Part shown: in pieces, positions 9,361-41,805 of the stretch | Position numbering within the stretch: the first letter of the stretch is position 1 | How the letters are laid out: the number at the start of each line of letters is the position of its first letter | Source of the DNA: Candidatus Bathyarchaeota archaeon | GTDB taxonomy: Archaea; Thermoproteota; Bathyarchaeia; 40CM-2-53-6; RBG-13-38-9 | Direction of reading: 5' to 3' | Assembly (NCBI GenBank): GCA_963807605.1 | Contig: CAWECG010000001.1 | Location: forward strand, 128,001 to 192,000 | DNA: 64,000 bases | The notes under the pieces: model-generated | The model's input: the letters and a program-made list of their open reading frames with translations, nothing else | Databases searched by the model: none | What the model was told of the DNA's origin: nothing | Translations under genes and position numbers: made by a program

Positions 9361-9705
9361 TCAAAGGGATTTTGAAAGAGTTATCTCGATGGTTGAGACC
9401 GACCTCGTGCCGCCTTCCTCCCTGGGCATCTCTTCTGTCCCAAGACTCACGCGTTCAACCTTGAGGTTTTTCATGAACCTACGTCTGGTTATTTCCGCGA
9501 CGTCAACTGCGGTTGATATGGCCTGACCTCTGGCTTTGAGGTTTACTTCTTTTGTCTCTCCTCTACCAATGATGGCCATCACGGACAACACATAGTCCAT
9601 GGGCGGGTTTCGTCCTATGAATACAGTGTTAGGTTCCTTAGACAAGATATCACCAAGCATTTCATGCGTGTTAACGTGCGAACACACATATAAGCACTTA
9701 ACCAC
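9361..9705 (-). CDS. alba: Chromatin protein Alba
   Basis: VFIG..PMDYV, LKARGQAISTAVDVAE, VSTIEITL; start probably near 9660. Confidence 0.94.
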   Translation of the reverse strand: MVKCLYVCSHVNTHEMLGDILSKEPNTVFIGRNPPMDYVLSVMAIIGRGETKEVNLKARGQAISTAVDVAEITRRRFMKNLKVERVSLGTEEMPREEGGTRSVSTIEITLSKSL

Positions 9706-9843
9706 TTTCAGACGGTCCCGTAATGTTCCTTAATTGTTAGCGCGCTTGTCTCAGATTTCATCCTAGAAATGTCCGCGTGGATGTCCACGCCGAAACCAGT
9801 ATCCACGTGACCGCACAAAACAGCCAGTTATCTATATCCCCCC

Positions 9844-10014
9844 TTAGCTGGTGAGCACACACACAATCAATGCCCAACGGTTCAATTTACGATGCTCTCA
9901 CCAAGGGACACACACACAAAACAAAGCCTAGCGGTTCAAATTAGGGTGCTCTCACCAGCTATGGCACACACAATTCATTCCCCTCATGTTGGGAGAAGAA
10001 TCTCGCAAACCCTC
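9844..10014 (+). repeat. Island repeat cluster: inverted partial copy, copies B (9879) and C (9933), and extension
   Basis: GGTTCAATT TACGA TGCTCTC ACCA and GGTTCAAAT TAGGG TGCTCTC ACCA, 54 bp apart. Confidence 0.85.
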
Positions 10015-10241
10015 TCTTTATCTTACGGATGACTCGCTACGCTCGCCAAAATATGAGTTCTATGACGATACTATGCACCTATGGAGAAGGCCAATATTTC
10101 CAGTAGATTCTTGGAGTCTGCCTTAGAAGTGGATAAGAAAGCTCCAAGATTCAGTCAAAAAAAGGCAAGACTGTAGAAAGGCTTTTTAAAATATGCATTG
10201 CACACCACTTTCATTGGGTTCAATAGTATCAGTGACATCCC

Positions 10242-10781
10242 TTGTCCAAGAATATGACGATTCCTGATTGGGTAAGAGTTCTAAGAGTCATGGTGGGTTG
10301 GATCGCAATCGTGGCCTCAGTAGTCGTCCTCGCTTGGCCAGGCCTTGCAATCTTCACCCTTCTTTTCCTCCTTTCATTCGCCCTGCTCTTTTTGGGTGTC
10401 GCTAGAATTGCTCATAGTTTCGCAGCTAAACTGTGGTCGAAAGGGCACCGCGCACTTCACGCAGTTGCTGGTGTTCTGGCGCTCATCCTAGGAGTACTAG
10501 TCCTTGCATTTCCTGGGCTTGGCATTGCTACTCTAGTCTTCTTACTCGCTTTTGCGCTACTAGCTTATGGTATTGTAAGCTTGGTGATAGGTGGATCTGC
10601 CGTTGCAGGTCTCTTATCAAAATTCGTGAGGGCGCTTCTCATCATAGTTGGTTCGCTCAGCATCATTTTCTCGCTCTTAGTCATTGTGTTCCCGGCGGTC
10701 GGACTCGTATCACTAGTGATAATGCTTTCGGTTTCATTTCTCCTGAACGGTATTGAGAGCATAATTTCAGGAATTAAGTGA
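10242..10781 (+). CDS. HdeD/DUF308 family membrane protein
   Basis: Six TM helices arranged as three G..A....V.VLAxPG repeats. Confidence 0.8.
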   Translation: MSKNMTIPDWVRVLRVMVGWIAIVASVVVLAWPGLAIFTLLFLLSFALLFLGVARIAHSFAAKLWSKGHRALHAVAGVLALILGVLVLAFPGLGIATLVFLLAFALLAYGIVSLVIGGSAVAGLLSKFVRALLIIVGSLSIIFSLLVIVFPAVGLVSLVIMLSVSFLLNGIESIISGIK

Positions 10782-10986
10782 ACGAGTCAGGAACCCGCAG
10801 AAACTGCGATTGAACAATGTGAAGTATCTTGCTTGGCAACAGAGTAGAAATCCCACCGATCTTGATTGTCGCCAAACACCTCTCATTTTTTTTGCGCGGG
10901 CTGTAGACCAGTCATCACGAAGAAACGGTTTCCAGTCTATCATGTTTAATCCTCCGAGCGTAACGAGCCATTCTTCAGAATAAAGA

Positions 10987-11065
10987 AGGGGTTTGGGGAA
11001 TTCTTCCCCAACATGAGGGGGAGGAATAATTGTGTGTGTGCTCACCCGCTATGGCACACACAATT
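10987..11065. repeat. Island repeat variant, hairpin-forming, inverted relative to 9964-10014
   Basis: AATTGTGTGTGTGCTCACCCGCTATGGCACACACAATT; 10987-11041 is approximately the reverse complement of 9964-10014. Confidence 0.8.
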
Positions 11066-11224
11066 CAACGCTGCTCGCTCCGCTCGCAGAATTCCTAGGA
11101 GGGGGATGTATTTTGACCATAGAATAAGGTTGAAGAGGCGCTCGAGAAGCAATCCTGATGGAAAATCACGTTCGTGAGATTGAATATGAAAAAAGGTGGT
11201 TCCTGCTCTATGAAGAGCGGGAGT

Positions 11225-11431
11225 TTACTCTTTCTTTCCGAACATGCTGCCGAGTTTGCTGGCAACTCCTCCGGTGGGGGTTCCGCCAGCTAGCACAGCG
11301 TCAATCTGACTCGCAACTGGAGCTGGAAGTTTACTCTTGAGCACGCCTGCGACGGCATCAATAGCACTCTTAGCTTGCGCCTCTGACAAACCGGTTTTCT
11401 GAGCGACGGCTGAAACAATAGCGCTTGACAT
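11225..11431 (-). CDS. Small DUF2267-like helical protein
   Basis: GGAGGTGA SD, then MSSAIVSAVAQKTGLSEAQAKSAIDAVAGVLKSKLPAPVASQID. Confidence 0.7.
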   Translation of the reverse strand: MSSAIVSAVAQKTGLSEAQAKSAIDAVAGVLKSKLPAPVASQIDAVLAGGTPTGGVASKLGSMFGKKE

Positions 11432-11541
11432 ACATTCACCTCCAGTGTCTATGTTTGCATGAAGAAGAGAATCGCTATTTAAAGATGTGCGCACAACTCG
11501 CGCGCGTAAGTGTTAAAAACAGTGTGACCTATCTTTAAACT

Positions 11542-12123
11542 ATGTCATCTATTGTTGGAAATCTGATGCAACAAGTAGCGACAGGAGATAACCTGTCCGC
11601 CATTACCAAGTCGGTCGGTGGAGATAATCAGAAAGGGGTTCAATCTGCCCTGAGCATGGCTTTGCCCCTGCTCATGGGTTCCATGGCGAACAGCGCATCA
11701 ACGCCAGGCGGAGCTGGCATGCTCACAAATATGCTGGGACAAATGGGGGGCAGCAATCCCGCGGACAACCTCGGGAGTTATCTAAGCAACCCTCAAGCAG
11801 CGGGTGGGTCAGGTATGCTGAACACGCTGCTCGGGAGCAAGATGGGTACCATCCAGAACGCAATCTCGCAGAAGACCGGACTCCCCCCTGCAGTGGTCGG
11901 CAAGGTACTCGTCATAGCGATGCCAATGGTCATGGGCTACGTCGGCAAGATGTTCACAGGACAGAAGGTGGACCAGAATAGCCTCTCCAATCTTCTTGGG
12001 CAGCAGTCGAAGATGGCCATGCAGTCTTCACCCGAAGCCGCCAATATGGCAAAACAGCTCCTCGCCACGAAAGAGGAGAGCGGGGGCATCATGGGCATGC
12101 TGAAGAAGTTGCTCGGAAGTTAA
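11542..12123 (+). CDS. DUF937 family protein
   Basis: ALPLLMGSMA..ML..LLGS...IQNAISQKTGL..MPMVMG pattern; GC3-rich codons unlike neighbours. Confidence 0.8.
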   Translation: MSSIVGNLMQQVATGDNLSAITKSVGGDNQKGVQSALSMALPLLMGSMANSASTPGGAGMLTNMLGQMGGSNPADNLGSYLSNPQAAGGSGMLNTLLGSKMGTIQNAISQKTGLPPAVVGKVLVIAMPMVMGYVGKMFTGQKVDQNSLSNLLGQQSKMAMQSSPEAANMAKQLLATKEESGGIMGMLKKLLGS

Positions 12124-12422
12124 CCCAGTTCAGGAAATACCCCCATCCTTTTTTCTTTGTTTCTTTCCGATTTCGCCGCTGTAGTGTGATGTTGCTCTCA
12201 TTGAATTCTTATTTTTTATAAGAATACGCCGTGACGTTTTCACATCACGAGTTCTCATAATATTACTCTTCGTATAATCGAAAAATCTCACGTTCCCCTG
12301 AAATCTAACTCCTCAACTCCCTCCTACACGCCGCTAACTTAATCAGGGCGGCGGGGGCGGCGCATCATTAGTACCACACAAAAAAACTTAAGTGAATTAT
12401 CAAGAGAATAACGAAAAGAGAG

Positions 12423-12674
12423 GTGATTGTGTTGGCTAAAGTGAAGAAGCGTTCGGAGGAGTTTGACAAGGCTAAGCTAAAAACTTCTTTGAAGAAGGCT
12501 GGAGCCAAAGAGGAACATGCAACAAAAGTTGCCGATAAGATTGCAGACAAAGTAAAAGATGGAACCACAACTGTAAAGATTTGGGAGTGGACTATAACAG
12601 AACTCAAACCATTAGATCCGAAGGCTGCAGAAGCATACCGAACTTACAAGAAACCGAAGCGGTCAACTAGCTAG
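12423..12674 (+). CDS. Stand-alone ATP-cone domain protein
   Basis: VKKRSEEFDKAKLKTSLKKAGA..TTVKI..ELK. Confidence 0.75.
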   Translation: MIVLAKVKKRSEEFDKAKLKTSLKKAGAKEEHATKVADKIADKVKDGTTTVKIWEWTITELKPLDPKAAEAYRTYKKPKRSTS

Positions 12675-12813
12675 ATACTGCCAAGGTGGATCAGCATAAG
12701 TAATTAAGTCTCCCGGTGGAGTGGGGCTATATGATTTTGCGCTGGCTCCGCTCCCTTCTCCCTAATGCGCTTAAGTACCTCTGTGCGCGTTGGTAGGGCA
12801 TCTTCCCCCTATT

Positions 12814-12907
12814 GGTTCAAAATGCGTTGCTCGCACCACTAGACCCACCACCACCAAAAATCACGGGTTCAAATTGCGATGCTCTCACCAGCTATAGCAC
12901 ACACACC
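12814..12907 (+). repeat. Island repeat copies D (12814) and E (12866)
   Basis: GGTTCAAAA TGCGT TGCTCGC ACCA and GGTTCAAAT TGCGA TGCTCTC ACCA GCTATAGCACACACAC, 52 bp apart. Confidence 0.85.
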
Positions 12908-13066
12908 GAGGCTCGCAGGGGATTTGATTGAACTCGCAGGACCACCGAACCAGCTTGTTCCAAAAGACCTCCAACGACAGACCCCACCCGAAAACCAACA
13001 ACAACCAACAAGAAGCTTTAATACGATTGTCCGAGCAACACCCTTAGTACCGGGTGCGTTTTTCTA

Positions 13067-13489
13067 TTGACCGTTCTGAAGGCTTCCGGTAAAAATTTGA
13101 GATTGTCAACTGTTTTCCTATTCCTCACCCTACTCACTTCACTGTTCTTTTTGGAGAGTGGGGTTGTGAATGTCGCTGCCTCCCCAACAGATTGGACCAT
13201 GTTCCATCAAAACCTCACTCATACTGGATTAACACCGGATGTTGTAACACCACCACTTAACGTGGCCTGGAACTACACAACAGGCTGGGTTGTCTCTTCT
13301 TCTCCTGCTGTTTCCGGGGGTTTCGTTTACGTAGGCTCAGGCTCAGGGGTTGATAAAGTGTATGGGTTTGCGAGCGCAACGCCGATTCCAGAGTATCCCA
13401 TATACATCTTTCCACTCGTGGCCTCGCTCACAGTCGCCATGCTTGCGCTAAGGCGTACTCGCTTCAAATCCCACGAACCGATGCAGTAA
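13067..13489 (+). CDS. Secreted protein with one PQQ-type propeller blade and a PEF-CTERM-like sorting signal
   Basis: Signal peptide, DWTMFHQNLTHTG, VSSSPAVSGGFVYVGS, IPEYP-TM-RRTR. Confidence 0.75.
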   Translation: MTVLKASGKNLRLSTVFLFLTLLTSLFFLESGVVNVAASPTDWTMFHQNLTHTGLTPDVVTPPLNVAWNYTTGWVVSSSPAVSGGFVYVGSGSGVDKVYGFASATPIPEYPIYIFPLVASLTVAMLALRRTRFKSHEPMQ

Positions 13490-13877
13490 AATCGCGAAAG
13501 GCAACGCCTCCTATCTGATGAAGAGAATAAACTTTTGACGTAAAGTCTTCCAGCGCTAGGACGCGCGCGCTTGCCCAGATAAGTAAGCAGGAAAGGCTCA
13601 TCGACTCCTTTCTCTTTGAGATGCTTGACCAAGCCGTATCCGTCACGGTTGAAGTTCACAAATCTCTCTTTATCCATCAAACCCATCCAAAGGACTTTTC
13701 TCAAAGAAGTATTACTGTCCTGAACATCAACCAAGAGACTAGTTTTGACGGATTAGAAGCTGTTCGGCTATTTGGATCGGCTGCGTCAGAACGCCCAGAT
13801 CTTAGATGAAGCCGTAGTGAATGCTCAGAAAATGGTGAGGCTTGAGGTTGGTCCATCTTTCTTGCTGTCTCGAACAG

Positions 13878-14840
13878 TCAATCTTCAAGCTGTGGCCGTA
13901 GCAGTGATCCGAGTTCGATAACCTCCGCATTTGGGTTTAGTGTTCGATCCAACACTACTATTCGGTTGTGGTTGTAGCGACCATTCGCGAGTCTCTGAAG
14001 AATAATTGACTCAGCCTTGCCACGACCGATGTAGGTGCCTGCAGAGTAATGCAGACTAAATCCGACAAGGACTATGAGAGCATAATGGTAAGAAATAGGT
14101 GCCTCTGCCCAGAGAACTTTGTAGAAGATTCCTAGCAGAGTGACCAGTATGTTGAGACCGATAATCGATCCGAATACAGCGGTTAGAAGAGTTGAGTGGA
14201 ATGGTCCTGAATTGATGCCGATGATCTTGAAGCGCCTGAAATATGGAAGGGCAATCGAAGGGACCAGGCCCGAGATCATGGTGACCACGATCAACCCCGG
14301 TGTCAGCGTGAGTGAAAATAGCACACCGGTCCCACGGTTAGGAATAGCAAAGAAGTTCAATGTATGCAGTAAAAACCGTAGCATACCAGGCTTTGTACTT
14401 AAGGTCCTTGCCAGGTCAACACTGTAGATGTCCCATCCTAGGGCAATCGACGTGAAGAACAATATTAATGGCAGGTAGACTATCTGAGATTTCTGGATGA
14501 GGGCCCTCATCTTTCCGGGTTGCAAGAGTTTTTCCTCCTTAGGTCTGATCACCTGCTTCGTCTTAGTGAGCCTCCCAAGCAATCCAACTATCCCTAACGA
14601 GCATTTGCCTCCGAGGAGTATGATTGACGCATAACCCAGCCCTATGACCAGAAGCCCTACTGTTGACGTAAAGAGTGCGACTGCAAATGGATCAAGACCA
14701 ACATGTGTGAGCTGGGGGATTGAGAACGTTGAAACCGCAGCGACAGAATACGCAACGAATCCTAGGATCAGTGGTGCAGCCGCATCGATGACCGATTCAC
14801 GTTCGGTAAATCTTCCCTTGTTCTCAGCTTGTTCAACCAT
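13878..14840 (-). CDS. Hypothetical multi-pass membrane protein
   Basis: 320-aa ORF with about six hydrophobic segments. Confidence 0.65.
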   Translation of the reverse strand: MVEQAENKGRFTERESVIDAAAPLILGFVAYSVAAVSTFSIPQLTHVGLDPFAVALFTSTVGLLVIGLGYASIILLGGKCSLGIVGLLGRLTKTKQVIRPKEEKLLQPGKMRALIQKSQIVYLPLILFFTSIALGWDIYSVDLARTLSTKPGMLRFLLHTLNFFAIPNRGTGVLFSLTLTPGLIVVTMISGLVPSIALPYFRRFKIIGINSGPFHSTLLTAVFGSIIGLNILVTLLGIFYKVLWAEAPISYHYALIVLVGFSLHYSAGTYIGRGKAESIILQRLANGRYNHNRIVVLDRTLNPNAEVIELGSLLRPQLED

Positions 14841-15335
14841 TCACGGAGTCATCTCTCTTAATCCATCTGGACGCCCAGTCGATAGCATTCTTCAGGACGC
14901 CTGGAATAGAATAATTGTATTCAGGTGTTGCGATTATTTATATATGCCAGTAAAATGACGCTATGAAAAACGCTTTCTGAACTTGGGTCAGAATAGATGT
15001 TTCTGCTGGCCAGACCCGTCCGCACCATGCTCCCTTGAGAGCGATCATTGACTGGGTTACTAGCACGCGCCTTTAACCGTGACCAAACTCTTCGAGGTAT
15101 TCTTAGGCATAATCTCAAGGAGATAATCATCGATCAAATTCCGAATCTCAATCGGCTTCATCTCACAAACGCGAGACCAAGCCAACTGCTTCTCTATGAG
15201 TCACCTCTCAAAAAGACCCCAGACACTTTTATATGATGGACTTCGACTGTAACGCCGCAACCAAACATCAGGCGAATCCGTACATAGAAATACAGTCTCC
15301 AAAGTATCTGAAAATGACAAATGTGTCAAGATTAA

Positions 15336-35971: not shown

Positions 35972-37234
35972 TTGAACATATTCGAAAAGATCCTCGCTAG
36001 GGCATCGGAAAGAAAGGAAGTAACCCCAGGGGAGATAGTCGAAGCAAACATCGATATGGCGATGATTCACGACCTAACCGGTCCTCTAACAGTGGACTCC
36101 TTCCGTAAGATTGGCGCCGAGAAAGTATGGGACCCAAAGAAGATAGTGGTAATTTTTGACCACTTGGTTCCTCCAAGCACCGTCAGGGCTGCTACCCTCC
36201 AAAAAGGAGTCAGAGAATTCGTGAGAGAACAAGGAATCAGAAGCTTCTACGATGTCGGCCAAGGAGGGGTCTGCCACCAAGTCTTTCATGAGAAGGGATA
36301 TGCAAGACCCGGTGAACTGGTCGTCGGTGCCGACTCACACACATGCACCTACGGAGCACTAGGAGCCTTAGCTACTGGAATAGGATCAACCGAGATGGCA
36401 GCAGTCTTTACAACAGGAAGAATGTGGTTCAAAGTGCCTAAAGTCATGAAGATCCATACTAGCGGAAAATTCGAGAAAAATGTTACCTCAAAGGATCTCA
36501 TACTAAGAATAATCGGAGATATTGGAGAGGGTGGAGCAATATACAAGGGAATGGAATTCACAGGTCCAACATTCACAAACATGAGCATTGATGGAAGATT
36601 AACAGTATGTAATATGGTGGTCGAGGCAGGAGCAAAAGCAGGCATAGTCCCGCCAGACAACAAAACCCTCACTTACGTCAGAGCAAGAACAAAGAAACCA
36701 TTCAAACCATTAAAAAGTGATAAAGACGAAGCTTATGAAGAGCAGCTAGAATACGATGTTTCAAAACTAGCTGCTCAAGTAGCCTGCCCCTCATCAGTTG
36801 ATAACGTCAAACCTGCATCTGAACTGTCTAACGTAAAAGTAGACCAAGTATTCATAGGATCATGCACAAACGGACGAATCGAAGATCTCAGGTTCGCTGC
36901 ATCAATCCTGAAGGGTAAAAACCTTCACCGCGATGTCCGAATGATCGTAAGCCCCTCATCCCAACAAGTATACAGCCAATGCCTCAAAGAGGGGCTGTTC
37001 CAAATATTCATGGAAGCTGGCGCAATAGTGACCAATGCAACGTGCGGGCCCTGTCTGGGTGGACATATGGGATTACTAGCTGCAGGAGAGGTCTGTATCA
37101 GTACCTCAAATCGTAATTTCATAGGCAGAATGGGAAGCCCTCAATCCTACGTTTACCTGGCTAATCCAGCTACAGCAGCAGCATCTGGAATAGCTGGATA
37201 CATAATCGATCCAAATGAATTGAGGAGGAGATGA
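35972..37234 (+). CDS. leuC: 3-isopropylmalate dehydratase / homoaconitase large subunit
   Basis: GADSHTCTYGA, GSCTNGRIEDL, CGPCLG, NRNFIGRMG; substrate not resolved. Confidence 0.9.
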   Translation: MNIFEKILARASERKEVTPGEIVEANIDMAMIHDLTGPLTVDSFRKIGAEKVWDPKKIVVIFDHLVPPSTVRAATLQKGVREFVREQGIRSFYDVGQGGVCHQVFHEKGYARPGELVVGADSHTCTYGALGALATGIGSTEMAAVFTTGRMWFKVPKVMKIHTSGKFEKNVTSKDLILRIIGDIGEGGAIYKGMEFTGPTFTNMSIDGRLTVCNMVVEAGAKAGIVPPDNKTLTYVRARTKKPFKPLKSDKDEAYEEQLEYDVSKLAAQVACPSSVDNVKPASELSNVKVDQVFIGSCTNGRIEDLRFAASILKGKNLHRDVRMIVSPSSQQVYSQCLKEGLFQIFMEAGAIVTNATCGPCLGGHMGLLAAGEVCISTSNRNFIGRMGSPQSYVYLANPATAAASGIAGYIIDPNELRRR

Positions 37235-37734
37235 AGTTGATCATTACTGCAAAAGCTGTAAAGTTTGGAAACAATATAAACACAGACGTAATCCTACCGG
37301 GTAAATATCTTGAATTGATCGATCCTAACGAACTAGGAAAACATGCATTGGAAGGACTTGATCCAACCTTCCCGCAGAGAGCAAAAGAAGGTGTAATAAT
37401 CGTAGGTGGCAAGAACTTCGGTTGCGGATCAAGCAGAGAACAAGCCCCAATAGCTCTAAAGGCGGCAGGAGTTAAATGTGTCCTCGCTGAGTCATTCGCA
37501 AGGATCTTCTATAGGAACGCGATAAACATAGGGCTGCCGGCCCTAGAATGCTCAGGCATCTCAGAAAAAACCAATGAAAGTGACTCGATCTCTATAAACT
37601 TGAAAGACGGAATTGTGGAAAACCACACTAAAGGAATCACCTTAAAGACCTCCCCTATGCCCGAGTTTATCATGAATCTATTAGAAGAAGGAGGCCTCAT
37701 CCCTCATACAAGAGGCCTGATCGGTAAAAAATGA
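37231..37734 (+). CDS. leuD: 3-isopropylmalate dehydratase / homoaconitase small subunit
   Basis: NINTDVILPG, NFGCGSSREQA, FARIFYRNAIN. Confidence 0.9.
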   Translation: MKLIITAKAVKFGNNINTDVILPGKYLELIDPNELGKHALEGLDPTFPQRAKEGVIIVGGKNFGCGSSREQAPIALKAAGVKCVLAESFARIFYRNAINIGLPALECSGISEKTNESDSISINLKDGIVENHTKGITLKTSPMPEFIMNLLEEGGLIPHTRGLIGKK

Positions 37735-37814
37735 GAGAACATAACATCGCACTTATACCTGGCGATGGTATTGGCCCAGAACAGACTGAAGCTGCACTGA
37801 AGGTTTTAGAAGCG
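37731..37814 (+). pseudogene. 5' remnant of the native isopropylmalate/isocitrate dehydrogenase-family gene
   Basis: MREHNIALIPGDGIGPEQTEAALKVLEA; ATGA overlap with leuD; ends at AGCGCGCGCT. Confidence 0.88.
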
Positions 37815-37860
37815 CGCGCTAAGAGTATAAGAGAAAAATGCTAAGGAGAAAAGAAGAACG

Positions 37861-38922
37861 ATGAGAAAGAAATATAATGTCGCAGTAATTGGCGGTGACG
37901 GTACAGGTCCGGAAGTGGTAGCAGAAGGATTAAAAGTCCTGAAAGCAGCTTCGAATGAATTTGGTTTTTCGTATGATACGACAATGTTTGATTTCGGTGG
38001 TGAGCGGTACCTGAAGACCGGAAAAACAATTACCGATGAAGAACTGGAAGGATTGAAAAAGTTTGATGCGATCTATCTTGGTGCAATCGGACATCCGGAT
38101 GTAAAACCGGGAATTCTGGAGCAAGGAATTCTTCTCAAGATACGATTTGCGCTCGATCAGTATATTAATTTACGTCCGGTGAAACTCTATAATGAAGCCT
38201 TTTGTCCCTTAAAGGATAAGAAACCGGAAGATGTTGATTTCGTCGTTGTGCGTGAAAATTCCGAAGGCCTCTACAAAGGACTCGGCAGTTTTGAAAATAA
38301 AGGGACAAAAAATGAAGTAGCAATTCAAATATCGCACAATACACGGAAAGGCGTTGAACGCTGTATTCGCTATGCGTTTGAATACTGCAAGAAACGCAAC
38401 AGCAAGAAAAAGAAACTCACGCTCTGCGGAAAAACGAATGTCCTGACATATGCATGGGATCTCTGGCAGCGAACATTTGATGAAGTGAAAAAAGAATATC
38501 CAGACATTCAAACCGAGTATGTGAATGTTGATGCAACAACCATGTGGTTTGTAAAAAATCCAGAATGGTTTGATGTGATTGTTACTGATAATTTATTCGG
38601 TGATATTATCACTGATCTTGGAGCGATGGTGCAAGGCGGTATGGGTATCGCCGCGGGTGGCAATATTAATCCGGAAGGCGTTTCTATGTTTGAACCGATC
38701 GGCGGATCTGCACCAAAGTATACCGGGAAACATGTTATTAATCCGCTTGCAGGGATTTGCGCCCTTGGGATGCTTCTGGAAAATATCGGTGAAGAAAAAG
38801 CCGGCAAAGGCGTTGAGAATACAGTGATTCGTCTTGTTCAGACTAAGATAAGAAGCCTTTCAGCAGGAAAGATGGGGTATACCACCGAAGAAGTCGGCGA
38901 TATGGTTGCAGGCGGGTTATAA
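37861..38922 (+). CDS. leuB: 3-isopropylmalate dehydrogenase, apparently of foreign (bacterial-like) origin
   Basis: [50 protein letters not shown]; codon usage (ATT, TTT, GAA, CCG) unlike neighbours; AAGGAG upstream. Confidence 0.92.
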
Positions 38923-38942
38923 GAAAAACACGCGCGCGCTGT

Positions 38943-39101
38943 GAAAAGGAAGACGACACGAAGTGGACGAATGCAGCTAACGCAATTGAGGAAGCCTTCG
39001 TCAACAATCTAGAACAAGGCGTCTACACACCTGATCTTGGAGGGAAGAGTAGAACAGCGGAAGTTGGAAAAGCAATAGCACAACAAATAATCGAGGGATA
39101 A
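38943..39101 (+). pseudogene. 3' remnant of the native isopropylmalate/isocitrate dehydrogenase-family gene
   Basis: EKEDDTKWTNAANAIEEAFVNNLEQGVYTPDLGGKSRTAEVGKAIAQQIIEG*; stop lies 2 nt before the leuA ATG. Confidence 0.88.
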
Positions 39102-39103
39102 GA

Positions 39104-40630
39104 ATGCAGCAGGAGAAGGATAGAGTCTGGATATTTGATACTACTCTAAGGGACGGCGAACAGACTCCCGGGGTATCCCTCACACCAGAGGAGAAGCTAG
39201 AGATAGCTATGAAGCTGGACGAGCTTGGCGTCGACACTATAGAGGCGGGTTTCCCAAGAGTATCACGAGGGGAAGTTGAAGCTACTAAGCTCATTTTGAA
39301 ACAAGGTCTGAAGGCCAAAGTCTGCGGACTCGCACGGACTGACCAGAAGGACATCGATGCCGCTCTCGAATGTGGAGTCCCCTACATACACGTATTCATA
39401 GCAACCTCAGAGATCCACATGAAACACAAACTGCAAATGAATAAACAACAGGTTCTAGAGGCTGCAACAAAATGGGTAGGTTACGCGAAGGATCACGGTG
39501 TGATTGTAGAATTCTCACCTGAAGACGCGACTAGAACCGAGCCCGACTTCCTCAAACAGGTCCTTAAGGTCGCTGAAGAGGCTGGAGCCGACATAATAAA
39601 CGTTCCAGACACCGTCAGCGCCGCAACACCTGAGAGGATGTTCGAGATCATAAAAGAATGCGTATCCACGGTAGCCATACCGATCAGCGTTCACTGCCAC
39701 AATGATTTCGGCTTGGCTGTAGCAAACTCACTCGCCGGAATCAGAGCAGGAGCATCGCAAGCCCATGTAACAATAAATGGGCTGGGCGAAAGAGCAGGTA
39801 ACGCCTCTCTTGAAGAGTTTGTAATGTCCCTCCATCTGCTAGAGAATAAGAAGACAAGCATCAACACCAAGCTCATCTACGAGACCTCAAGACTGGTATC
39901 CGGGCTTACAGGCGTACTTATACAGCCGAACAAGGCTATAGTTGGAGAGAATGCCTTCGGTCATGAATCCGGGATCCATACACATGGAATGCTGAAAAGT
40001 CCCTTAACATATGAACCGATCACCCCTGAGCTTGTTGGAAGAAAGAGATGGTTCCAAGCCGGAAAACATGCCGGAGGACACGGCCTTGCCGCCAAGCTTG
40101 AGGAGGACGGCCTTCATCCAACTGAAGAACAGATGAAAGAGATAACCCGTCGAGTCAAGGATATCGGCGACAGGGGAAAGATGGTGGCCGATGCAGACCT
40201 ATTCGCAATCGCCAAAGCAGTTATCGGCGGAGTTTCGGAAGAGAAGAAGATCGTTGAGTTAGAGAATCTCACAGTTGTAACAGGAACAGGCGTGGTCCCA
40301 ACATCATCGGTCAAGCTACTTATTGACGGAAAAGAGTACATATCCTCGGAGACCGGCGTTGGGCCGGTCGACGCTGCCATCAAGGCTATCCACAAGATAG
40401 TTGGTCCGCTGGCGGACGTGAGATTGAAGGAGTATCGACTGGAAGCCACAACTGGTGGGTCCGACGCTTTAGCCGAAGTCCTCATAAAGATAGAGGATAG
40501 CGCAGGCAACATTGTGTCGGCCAGAGCAGCCAGAACAGATGTGGTGACTGCAAGCGTAGAAGCAGTGATAGAAGGAATCAACAGGACACTAATCAAGAGC
40601 CGCATCAAGAGTTCCGAAGACCGGCGCTGA
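39104..40630 (+). CDS. leuA: 2-isopropylmalate (or citramalate) synthase
   Basis: [35 protein letters not shown] regulatory domain. Confidence 0.9.
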
Positions 40631-40674: not shown

Positions 40675-41805
40675 GTGGCCAAGCACAGGATAGCACTTCT
40701 TCCGGGCGATGGTATCGGCAAAGACGTAATCGATGCAGCCAAGATAGTTCTTGACGCGACAAGACTTGACGCCGAGTATTTTCTCGGTGAGATTGGATGG
40801 GAATTCTGGAAGAACGAGGGCGACCCTTTACCCCAGAGAACTCTAAGCCTACTTAGAAGGACCGACGCCTGCTTGATGGGAGCAATAACCTCCAAACCTA
40901 AGGATGAAGCTCAACTTGAGCTAGACCCCAAGCTGAAGAACAAAGCTTACGATTACTACAGCCCAATAGTCAGGCTCCGTCAGGAGTTTAATCTCCACAC
41001 GAACATAAGACCCTGCAAGAGCTACAAAGGCAACCCACTCAACTTCAGAGAAGGAATAGACATAGTAGTATTCAGAGAGAATACCGAAGGCCTCTACAGC
41101 GGAGTTGAGTTCCACCCCCTGCCGTTGCCACTGATGCAGTGGCTAATTAAGAATCATCCGAAGATGAAGAGATTCGAATCTACGCCTCTTGATGAGATAG
41201 CAATCTCATTGAGGATAATGACTAGGAAAGCCTGCGATACGATCCTGACCAGTGCATTCGAGTACGCCAAGAAGAAAGACTACAAGACCGTCACCGTAGT
41301 CGAGAAGCCGAACGTACTGAGAGAGACAGGCGCGCTGATGCTCAGAGAAGCGCGAAGAATTGCCACGAACTACCCTTCAATTCAACTCCTAGAAGGAAAT
41401 ATAGACGCGATCTGTATGTGGCTGATAAAGAACCCCTTAGACTACTCGATAATTGTGGCTGAGAACCTTTTCGGAGACATCATCTCCGACCTCTGCGCGC
41501 AACTTGTGGGAGGCTTAGGCTTCGCGCCGAGCGCGAACGTCGGTGATAGCTATGCAATCTTTGAACCAACACATGGCTCGGCTCCGAAGTATGCGGGACA
41601 GTACAAAGTCAACCCTCTGGCAACAATCCTCTCTGCAGCTATGATGCTTGAATACCTTAGAGAAAATGCCTTGGCAGCAAGAGTTGAAAACGCAGTCGCA
41701 GCTGTCATCGCAGAAGGAAGAGTAAGAACCTACGATATGGGCGGAAGCAGCACCACCTTGGATATGGCACATGCCATATCTGACAAGCTGAGTTCAAGCT
41801 CGTAA
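40675..41805 (+). CDS. Isocitrate/isopropylmalate dehydrogenase family, probably homoisocitrate dehydrogenase
   Basis: PGDGIG, RENTEGLY, NLFGDIISD, FEPTHGSAP, TYDMGG. Confidence 0.85.
   Translation: MAKHRIALLPGDGIGKDVIDAAKIVLDATRLDAEYFLGEIGWEFWKNEGDPLPQRTLSLLRRTDACLMGAITSKPKDEAQLELDPKLKNKAYDYYSPIVRLRQEFNLHTNIRPCKSYKGNPLNFREGIDIVVFRENTEGLYSGVEFHPLPLPLMQWLIKNHPKMKRFESTPLDEIAISLRIMTRKACDTILTSAFEYAKKKDYKTVTVVEKPNVLRETGALMLREARRIATNYPSIQLLEGNIDAICMWLIKNPLDYSIIVAENLFGDIISDLCAQLVGGLGFAPSANVGDSYAIFEPTHGSAPKYAGQYKVNPLATILSAAMMLEYLRENALAARVENAVAAVIAEGRVRTYDMGGSSTTLDMAHAISDKLSSSS

Follow-up and report, generated by a model that had tools for sequence, protein, structure and literature searches.

We examined the leucine biosynthesis operon in a 64,000-nt stretch of Bathyarchaeota DNA (the window, G000:C1:128001-192000; G000 is a 2.65-Mb genome in five contigs). 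Between leuD and leuA, the window carried a complete leuB of bacterial type that was lodged inside the two ends of an archaeal leuB. We think it quite likely that this arrangement is a natural, in situ displacement of the archaeal gene by a gene of bacterial origin and that the replacement allele arose once and was spread by recombination. The mechanism that produced the short GC filler sequences at the joints is graded separately below.

The bacterial-type leuB and its archaeal shell

The preliminary description of this locus, made from the sequence alone, proposed that the ends of the native gene had been kept around a replaced middle of about 1.1 kb with a complete leuB. Comparison with relatives bore this out. 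The two remnants aligned with the first 27 and last 52 codons of intact native leuB, and the N-terminal stub could be aligned with the intact native genes of G002 and G006. As proposed, both remnants were still coupled to their neighbors: the TGA stop codon of leuD and the ATG of the N-terminal stub (37731) shared an ATGA overlap, and 2 nt separated the stop codon of the C-terminal stub from the leuA ATG (39104). The final codons of the C-terminal stub held a GAGG upstream of the leuA start. The cassette between the stubs (window 37812-38940) was 1.13 kb in length, and about 660 nt of the native target were missing at the insert. The description had also noted a common motif at the joints, and GCGCGCGCT was indeed present at 37812-37820 and again at 38932-38940. 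Thus, GCGCGCGCT formed a 9-bp direct repeat, and the (GC)4 ends were perfect 8-bp inverted repeats. The window contained three copies of GCGCGCGC versus 0.42 expected, and two of the three bracketed the insert exactly. The stretch was single-copy in G000.

The insert protein scored 505.2 bits against the NCBIfam LeuB equivalog NF002898 (bacterial PRK03437 class; cut-off, 393) and 335 against tartrate dehydrogenase models, which was below the cut-off of 470. Its nearest solved structure was 1w0d, a LeuB. The native gene at the same position in G002 scored 421.1 against TIGR02088 LEU3_arch (cut-off, 409.8), and native leuB and the insert were 33 to 39% identical. Judging from its location between leuD and leuA here and next to leuD in Omnitrophota relatives, the insert is presumably a functional 3-isopropylmalate dehydrogenase. 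An exact database look-up of the window's LeuB returned no record.

G000 contained three Iso_dh genes besides the insert: the 376-aa gene downstream of leuA, a 363-aa gene, and a copy at C3:461201. The 376-aa and 363-aa copies fell under every LeuB cut-off; in the case of the 376-aa copy, the best NCBIfam matches were AksF2 (334 versus a cut-off of 540) and LEU3_arch (308 versus 410). Because these two copies were classed as paralogues below the cut-offs, we take the bacterial gene to be the sole LeuB-class gene found in G000, in a comparison that covered these two of the three other Iso_dh genes. The 363-aa gene (G000:C1:342452-343444; L140:251-1339, minus strand) was 41% identical to native LeuB and had HGCAYD in place of HGSAPD. 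It directly adjoined one of the family-A insertion sequence (IS) elements described below, at the edge of an island rich in GC runs.

The insert differed from host genes in codon usage, as the preliminary description had stated. The arginine codons AGA/AGG made up 2/12 of the arginine codons in the insert versus 65/82 in host genes, and the isoleucine codon ATA accounted for 3/23 versus 62/137. GC content at third codon positions was 0.38 in the insert and 0.53 to 0.60 in leuA, ilvC, and the Iso_dh paralogue, with leuC and leuD at just 0.43; overall GC content was 40 to 43% in the insert versus 48 to 52% in leuA. The codon usage of the insert was un-ameliorated.

The closest proteins to the insert were 80 to 91% identical and were named LeuB of Omnitrophica/Omnitrophota or Bacteroidota. 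We placed the insert in a LeuB tree of 111 rows with supports from the approximate likelihood-ratio test (SH-aLRT). Three archaeal copies of the cassette formed one clade (SH-aLRT, 99). This clade was located within a group that held a Bacteroidota metagenome-assembled genome (MAG), an Ignavibacteriales MAG, and a Logan contig (SH-aLRT, 100), and that group was located within an Omnitrophota-dominated clade (SH-aLRT, 98). The insert therefore nested in bacterial clades and not with the orthologues of the host lineage, and the tree indicated that it was foreign, bacterial, and of inter-domain origin. Our literature search found no paper on leuB transfer between Bathyarchaeia and Omnitrophota.

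The nearest bacterial DNA (L129 and L132, from a peatland Bacteroidota MAG) was 82.6% identical to the window over exactly 37820-38928. In the closest bacterial relatives, the gene upstream of leuB was proC, which ended in ...SKLLNNL*, and the donor-like homology to the cassette started at the proC TAA stop codon and ended about 6 to 8 nt after the leuB stop codon. The cassette was trimmed almost to the open reading frame (ORF). The spacer in front of the insert began with the TAA stop of proC and contained a Shine-Dalgarno sequence, AAGGAG. The frame of the N-terminal stub stayed open through the joint until a TAA at 37842-37844. The peptide KSIREKC*, which had been read as the tail of the donor's upstream gene, was instead donor intergenic spacer in the frame of the remnant, because donor homology started at the proC TAA (37820).

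Table 1. Features of the leu operon segment around the insert, in window coordinates
Feature	Coordinates	Strand	Basis
leuD, isopropylmalate isomerase small subunit	37231..37734	+	Pfam Aconitase_C, ORF list
Native archaeal-type leuB, N-terminal stub, 27 codons	37731..37811	+	Iso_dh profile positions 1-28
Left joint, filler GCGCGCGC+T	37812..37820	.	In neither donor-like nor native sequence
Donor-derived spacer	37820..37860	+	blastn match to L129/L132 begins at 37820, 82.6% identity
Complete bacterial-type leuB, 3-isopropylmalate dehydrogenase (presumed), 353 aa	37861..38922	+	Iso_dh positions 1-348, NF002898, tree
Donor-derived 3' tail, about 6-8 nt past the stop codon	38923..38930	+	L129 match ends at 38928
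Right joint, C+GCGCGCGC+T	38931..38940	.	128-nt native deletion flush with joint, lineage-specific to G000
Native leuB C-terminal stub, 52 codons + stop	38943..39101	+	Iso_dh positions 307-348; aligns with native leuB 3' ends
leuA, 2-isopropylmalate synthase	39104..40630	+	Pfam HMGL-like, HCS_D2, LeuA_dimer
Iso_dh-family paralogue, 376 aa, downstream of leuA	40675..41805	+	Family-wide conservation; separate clade in tree

Two further observations concerned the cassette and its bacterial relatives. A 16-nt direct repeat was located just inside the cassette ends, with TATAAGAGAAAAATGC at 37826-37841 and TATAAGAAAAACACGC at 38918-38933 (81% identical). Donor-like DNA had a similar A-rich repeat at the proC and leuB stops, and the 16-nt repeat may be due to chance in A-rich spacers. 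Separately, a bacterial Logan contig (L018:890-1078; SRR22388062) carried leuD followed by a fusion in which 27 codons from a classical bacterial leuB ran into the final ~35 codons of proC. Next came a Y1/RAYT transposase and then a leuB whose protein was 89% identical to that of the window's insert. The break in the resident gene of this contig, after codon 27 (...ALKVLD|), matched to the codon the break in the archaeal shell (...ALKVLE|, window 37731-37811).

Spread of the replacement allele and other leuB displacements

The same cassette, with the same joints, was present between leuD and leuA in G001, a member of the same genus (GCA_026394315.1; protein MCX6660345.1, Candidatus Bathyarchaeota), and in G008, a member of another genus (GCA_964598945.1). 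The G001 allele was represented by 23 contigs from several JGI, ENA, and NCBI samples and the G008 allele by 6 contigs. Both joints recurred in independent short-read assemblies (JGI, ENA, NCBI, and Logan) with three different archaeal flank pairs. Among the genomes and contigs searched, the cassette was found only at the leuB locus. Sister genomes with the intact native gene were also identified, as an intact LEU3_arch leuB was located between leuD and leuA in G002, G005, G006, G011, and G012. As for the neighboring leuA, 15 family genomes were compared: orthologues were 80 to 86% identical in amino acid sequence in 11 of them and 66 to 67% identical in G004 and G007, and only weak matches were found in G010 and G014.

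At the DNA level, the cassettes of G000, G001, and G008 were 97.3 to 98.9% identical, versus 72 to 77% for the adjacent 700 to 1500 nt of flanking sequence (leuC/leuD and leuA). The left joint fell at the same native base in all three genomes, and G001 and G008 also shared the right joint. In its N-terminal stub, G008 was 95% identical to G000 and 72% identical to its own congener, G012; the N-terminal stub of G001 was G000-like only over the last ~40 nt. To the right of the cassette, G008 was G001-like for ~150 nt and then G012-like (77 to 93%), and G012 has an intact native leuB. The imported tract in G008 extended ~80 nt to the left and ~150 nt to the right of the cassette, and the identity gradients ended 40 to 150 nt outside the joints. 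Such a pattern points to import of the allele by crossovers within two conserved coding patches of the stubs, GDGIGPE and FEPVHGSAP. Because the joints were shared, cassette identity greatly exceeded flank identity, and the gradients ended so close to the joints, the comparison indicated a single origin of the replacement allele, followed by its spread through homologous recombination in the leuB stubs. Divergence of the cassette kept pace with that of the flanks in the G001 clade (98.6% and 96 to 97.6% identity, respectively, between G001 and L152).

These data divided two of the earlier claims. The breakpoints are not at equivalent codons and lie in donor noncoding DNA, so the original joints are illegitimate, as the preliminary description had argued; for the last step into G000, which the same argument had set apart from ordinary homologous recombination, the most likely route was homologous recombination between archaea via the leuB stubs. 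Likewise, the claim of a recent inter-domain displacement stood with respect to the bacterial origin and the in-place replacement, on the evidence of the tree and of an approximately unbiased (AU) test described below, and was not supported with respect to a direct transfer from a bacterium. Because the nearest bacterial gene was only 82.6% identical at the DNA level, the source of the cassette in G000 was probably another archaeon, without direct transfer from a bacterium. In each lineage, the stubs had belonged to a functional gene until a short time ago, which explains their undecayed look; their condition reflects the recency of each replacement and not maintenance.

Other genera of the family also carried bacterial-type leuB genes. 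In genera g4 and g7, a different bacterial-type leuB was located between leuD and leuA; it was 68 to 71% identical to the insert at the protein level and grouped near Smithella. Genus g3 had a third bacterial-type leuB a few kilobases from the operon (L105:640-1760), which grouped with Nitrospirota, Acidobacteria, and Syntrophales. In the g3 spacer between leuD and leuA (L005:1385-1500, L008, and L010), all that was left of native leuB was 14 codons at the N terminus and about 6 at the C terminus, which met at a ACACGCGCTAGC-type (ACGCGC-type) joint, and the C-terminal codons held a GAGG before leuA. The g3 leuB was flanked or preceded by TAGCGCGCGCTA in G003, with transition-decayed copies in G013 and G015. 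When the nine archaeal bacterial-type LeuBs were forced into one clade, the resulting tree was rejected (log-likelihood difference, 145; p-AU, 2.5e-88) in an AU test on 40 rows, for a group that was defined after the tree had been seen. Because a single common origin of the three bacterial types was rejected, displacement of archaeal leuB by bacterial versions from different source clades is recurrent in this family. In the g4 and g7 loci (L102, L103, and L104), no native leuB stub was visible. The C terminus of leuD also differed there, and because of this difference, more of the operon may be foreign.

GC runs at the joints and throughout the genome

In native relatives, the sequence at the left breakpoint was GAGGCTGTTCAAC or similar (GAGGCTG...), with no GC run, and the corresponding position in donor-like L129 read ...cttaTAAaag. 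Sequence comparison revealed no GC run at either breakpoint of the native genes or in the donor-like DNA, and GCGCGCGCT was absent from both breakpoints of the intact native genes. Because the native and donor-like sequences both lacked the run at the joint, the comparison identified the (GC)4 runs as filler that came from neither partner.

The right joint differed between carriers. After this joint, G001 and G008 continued with CGCAAATA... (native LANIGK...FEPVHGSAPDIAGK) for 128 nt, and G000 lacked these 128 nt. The deletion in G000 was flush with GCGCGCGCT, and the C-terminal stub was 52 codons in G000 and 95 codons in G001 and G008. The motif itself had decayed to GCGCGTGCT in G001 and to GCGCGTGTT in L152 via C-to-T changes. 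Given this decay, the GC scars look like neutral marks rather than maintained sites. The alignments also indicated that the shell was eroded from the joints outwards and that flush deletions at the joints are continuing.

Similar runs were found across the genome, and the GCGC junction proposed in the preliminary description was a real, genome-wide phenomenon. G000 had 269 runs of (GC)4 or longer, versus 13 to 37 copies of other 8-mers of equal composition. The alternating-GC runs were 8 to 15 nt in length and were clustered in islands, with up to 20 runs per 50 kb (e.g., C1:346000-366000, L139). G001 had 325 matches to GCGCGCGC, and counts among 30 relatives ranged from 0 to 325. Only 8% of the runs were inside crude ORFs (at least 120 aa), versus 76% of random positions; the other 92% were outside. 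In one stretch that was compared with ORFs by eye, several runs were within a few nucleotides of a stop codon. The flanks of the runs read W-A-(GC)n-T-W, and TAG and TAA followed runs at about ten times the background frequency. No palindromic arms of the kind that form hairpins in repeated extragenic palindromes (REPs) were found around the runs beyond plus or minus 2 nt.

The runs also coincided with ends of homology between paralogues. At 65 run flanks, paralogue homology stopped 0 to 6 nt (mostly 0 to 2 nt) from the run, and in 77 of 86 cases the matching paralogue continued without a run. Runs were located exactly at the breakpoints of deletions, duplications, and inversions between paralogues; in two simple cases, a run of 9 to 10 nt stood in place of 6 nt of the paralogue. 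A 1-kb segment at C1:377813-378820 had runs on both sides, and its paralogue at C1:578634-579643 had none. Our literature search yielded no paper on GCGCGCGC or on GC-run junctions.

Two other sites with runs were observed. An ATP-dependent DNA ligase gene (KxDG motif) was present in G001, G002, G006, G008, and G012 and missing in G000 (C1:209800-210560; L146:5800-6560), where it was replaced from stop codon to start codon by about 750 nt with (GC)4 runs at 209,844 and 210,370; in G001, the gene was split into three frames. In the window, a stretch of ~6 kb (9500-15300) had no syntenic counterpart in five relatives and gave only short repeat matches, with synteny returning at ~15330. The third GCGCGCGC of the window was inside this stretch, at 13563 within ACGCGCGCGCT.

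Runs were also associated with IS elements. G000 contained two related IS5-family elements (DDE_Tnp_1 + DUF772) of about 1.13 kb, with transposases that were 42% identical and 14 copies in total. Family A was about 1140 bp with ends TAGCCTCTTGCAATATT (e.g., C1:343573-344712, L137), and family B was about 1125 bp with ends GGGTTGTCCCG (e.g., C3:701717-702839, L138). All seven of the copies inspected had GC-alternating runs on both sides, mostly TA-(GC)3, and 2 of the 14 ends were shortened or imperfect. IS copies in G001, G002, and G012 had similar runs that were less regular. At one orthologous locus, a gene that was intact in G001 and G008 was truncated at the same point in G000 and G002, with an IS there in G000 and a solo (GC)4 in G002. 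This locus fits either possibility, namely, IS elements that target runs or runs that are IS tips or footprints. No empty site was found for an IS_B copy, as its locus was rearranged in all relatives.

Alternative explanations and relation to known systems

We propose the following history. A bacterial leuB of the PRK03437/NF002898 class would have entered the leu operon of a Bathyarchaeon from the Omnitrophota-dominated clade, in which Bacteroidota and Ignavibacteriales MAGs are the closest members sampled. It would have carried only about 40 nt of upstream spacer, with the ribosome-binding site, and about 8 nt of downstream sequence and would have replaced the middle of a LEU3_arch-class leuB through two illegitimate joints with A/C-(GC)4-T filler. 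The allele would then have moved between species- and genus-level lineages, with the short conserved stubs serving as homology arms, and a further 128 nt of the C-terminal stub were lost later in G000, flush with the right joint. The bacterial leuB is presumably co-transcribed with the operon, with its own Shine-Dalgarno sequence serving for translation. As for the filler, IS insertion, adjacent deletion, and later IS loss may have cut a larger insert back to boundaries that suit its function, with A(GC)4T remaining at every trimmed joint. We regard the foreign origin, the single illegitimate origin of the joints, the recombinational spread via short arms, the lack of a template for the filler in donor-like or native sequence, and the flush deletion as established by the comparisons, and the way in which the filler is written as an inference.

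Some points weighed against this history. Recombination across flanks that are only about 75% identical is expected to be rare, and the tract ends were read from identity gradients of 40 to 150 nt in regions that are also conserved for function. The true bacterial donor is unsampled (best DNA match, 82.6%), and for this reason we infer the direction and timing of the first transfer. Three other histories were weighed against it. An assembly or binning chimera of bacterial and archaeal reads might be suspected because the window's genome is a five-contig assembly. Such a chimera is very unlikely, indeed close to negligible, because the same joints occurred in many independent assemblies with three archaeal flank pairs; moreover, the stretch was single-copy and the scars had decayed naturally in some lineages, and we consider the replacement natural. 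Under old replacement with vertical inheritance from the ancestor of the carrier genera, the cassette would be slow-evolving or homogenised, and the comparable divergence of cassette and flanks between G001 and L152 would be expected. However, a DNA identity of 97 to 99%, including synonymous sites, versus 72 to 77% in adjacent essential genes is beyond constraint, genus g8 was polymorphic (the cassette in G008 versus the native gene in G012), and native leuB was kept in other genera nested among the carriers, all of which makes this history highly improbable. The 1.13-kb unit between palindromic (GC)4 runs might also be a small mobile cassette that inserted independently at the same site in each lineage. 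The perfect inverted repeats, the GCGCGCGCT direct repeat, which resembles a target duplication, the run-bounded segment at C1:377813-378820 with its run-free paralogue, and the right-end flush deletion in G000, which resembles a transposon-adjacent deletion, would all suit such an element. However, this was not a simple insertion because about 660 nt of target are missing, and the intact native genes had GCGCGCGCT at neither point. A single origin with later recombination fits the identical deletion end-points in three lineages and the raised identity that reached 40 to 150 nt beyond the joints, and the cassette was found at leuB only; we regard independent mobile insertions as improbable.

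The origin of the filler was less clear-cut. We lean toward trimming that depends on IS5-family elements, a tentative preference held at somewhat less than even confidence, because it explains why the boundaries are ORF-tight, why the deletion is flush, and why TA is preferred. Several results ran counter to a role for these elements. At E<=1e-30, the run-rich g3, g4, and g7 genomes yielded no homologues of IS_A and IS_B, and run-poor G012 had several; IS copies, however, are frequently missing from short-read MAGs. Of the four flanks that adjoin the two leuB joints, just one began with TA. None of the carriers examined showed an intermediate in which an IS adjoined the cassette or the donor flanks were longer, and excision footprints are unusual for prokaryotic IS elements. 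The abundance of IS_A and IS_B was itself rejected as an explanation of run abundance, as the two correlated poorly across relatives. A different possibility is end joining, in which self-complementary alternating GC tails or an A(GC)4T linker would anneal and be ligated, with a linear bacterial fragment entering a double break in leuB. Filler that is in neither the donor-like nor the native sequences, runs exactly at the breakpoints of deletions, duplications, and inversions between paralogues, and run lengths that vary from 8 to 15 nt are in its favor, and it would explain both joints in one step along with the variety of junction types. Run counts of 0 to 325 among relatives would also be as expected for a lineage-specific activity. 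However, we know of no enzyme that adds alternating GC, and junctions of this kind did not turn up in the literature search. A random fragment would be unlikely to have donor ends trimmed so tightly (about 40 nt upstream of the ATG and about 8 nt downstream of the stop codon), and end joining predicts neither the constant A...T or TA flanks nor the strict association with IS5-family ends. End joining is thus a possible but rather doubtful source of the filler compared with IS-dependent trimming.

Filler DNA and N-nucleotide additions occur at non-homologous end-joining junctions, and the leuB joints resemble these in having a short untemplated sequence exactly at illegitimate joints. They differ in that one defined sequence, A(GC)4T, was present at hundreds of joints, whereas known filler is random or locally templated. 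IS5-family elements duplicate short targets at sites that contain TA, such as YTAR, and some IS elements target repeated extragenic palindromes. The elements between GC runs, the enrichment of TAG and TAA after runs, and a joint-flush deletion like those adjacent to transposons are reminiscent of such systems. The cassette itself was rejected as an IS or composite transposon: it had no transposase, leuB was the sole ORF of at least 150 aa, and the only terminal inverted repeat was the GC run. Target-site duplication was likewise rejected, with intact native genes lacking GCGCGCGCT at the breakpoints and about 660 nt of target missing.

Homology-facilitated illegitimate recombination has been described in naturally transformable bacteria. 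In haloarchaea, loci have been replaced between divergent species by homologous recombination (Williams et al. 2012, PMC3542582). The leuB locus resembles both in that crossovers in flanking homology would import foreign DNA and divergent archaea would exchange alleles of an orthologous locus. It differs in its arms of just about 40 to 150 nt of stub, its flanks of about 75% identity, and its inter-domain cargo; in addition, neither side of the first integration shows a homologous anchor. Capture of genes across domains is known from archaeal integrons (Ghaly et al. 2022, PMC9668308), and the leuB unit is similar to an integron cassette in being a single promoterless gene with minimal flanks, short palindromic bounds, an archaeal host, and a cross-domain origin. 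An integron cassette was rejected on the basis of attC, an imperfect inverted repeat of roughly 57 to 141 nt at the cassette 3' end: no attC was found, as about 8 nt and a GC run of 8 to 10 nt lay between the stop codon and native sequence with no further inverted repeat. Also unlike an integron, the locus showed no attI or array context among its neighbors (ilv and leu genes; no search aimed at an IntI integrase was made), and the insertion was inside a gene with 660 nt of target deleted.

Omelchenko et al. are said to have described xenologous gene displacement in situ and mosaic operons in 2003 (Genome Biol 4:R55, as cited in PMC3542582). In situ xenologous displacement is a concept inferred from phylogeny, in which gain and then loss are expected as two events (Koonin and Wolf 2008, PMC2588523). 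The leuB locus corresponds to it in that a distant orthologue, a bacterial LeuB between leuD and leuA, sits at the resident's place in a conserved operon: the insert nested in a distant lineage, the operon position (leuD-insert-leuA) was the same, and the resident orthologue was lost. It differs from the concept in that the physical intermediate is visible, with both stubs, base-exact joints, donor-like sequence, and a sweep across genera.

In situ displacement of essential genes has mostly been inferred from trees, and here an intermediate is preserved base by base, with intact sister alleles available. The locus points to an inter-domain acquisition that swept across genera via stubs of the displaced gene of about 100 nt, and it provides a direct test bed for the (GC)n junctions at about 270 sites in G000. 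It is conceivable, though we hold it to be somewhat unlikely, that an undescribed break-joining or gene-capture process writes an A(GC)4T linker at every joint, either alone or via IS5-family transposases. If so, this process would capture ORF-trimmed foreign genes and would make ORF-precise deletions as well as rearrangements, with hundreds of affected sites in each genome. Its cleanest documented product would then be the leuB locus, because the donor-like, empty-site, and product sequences are all available.

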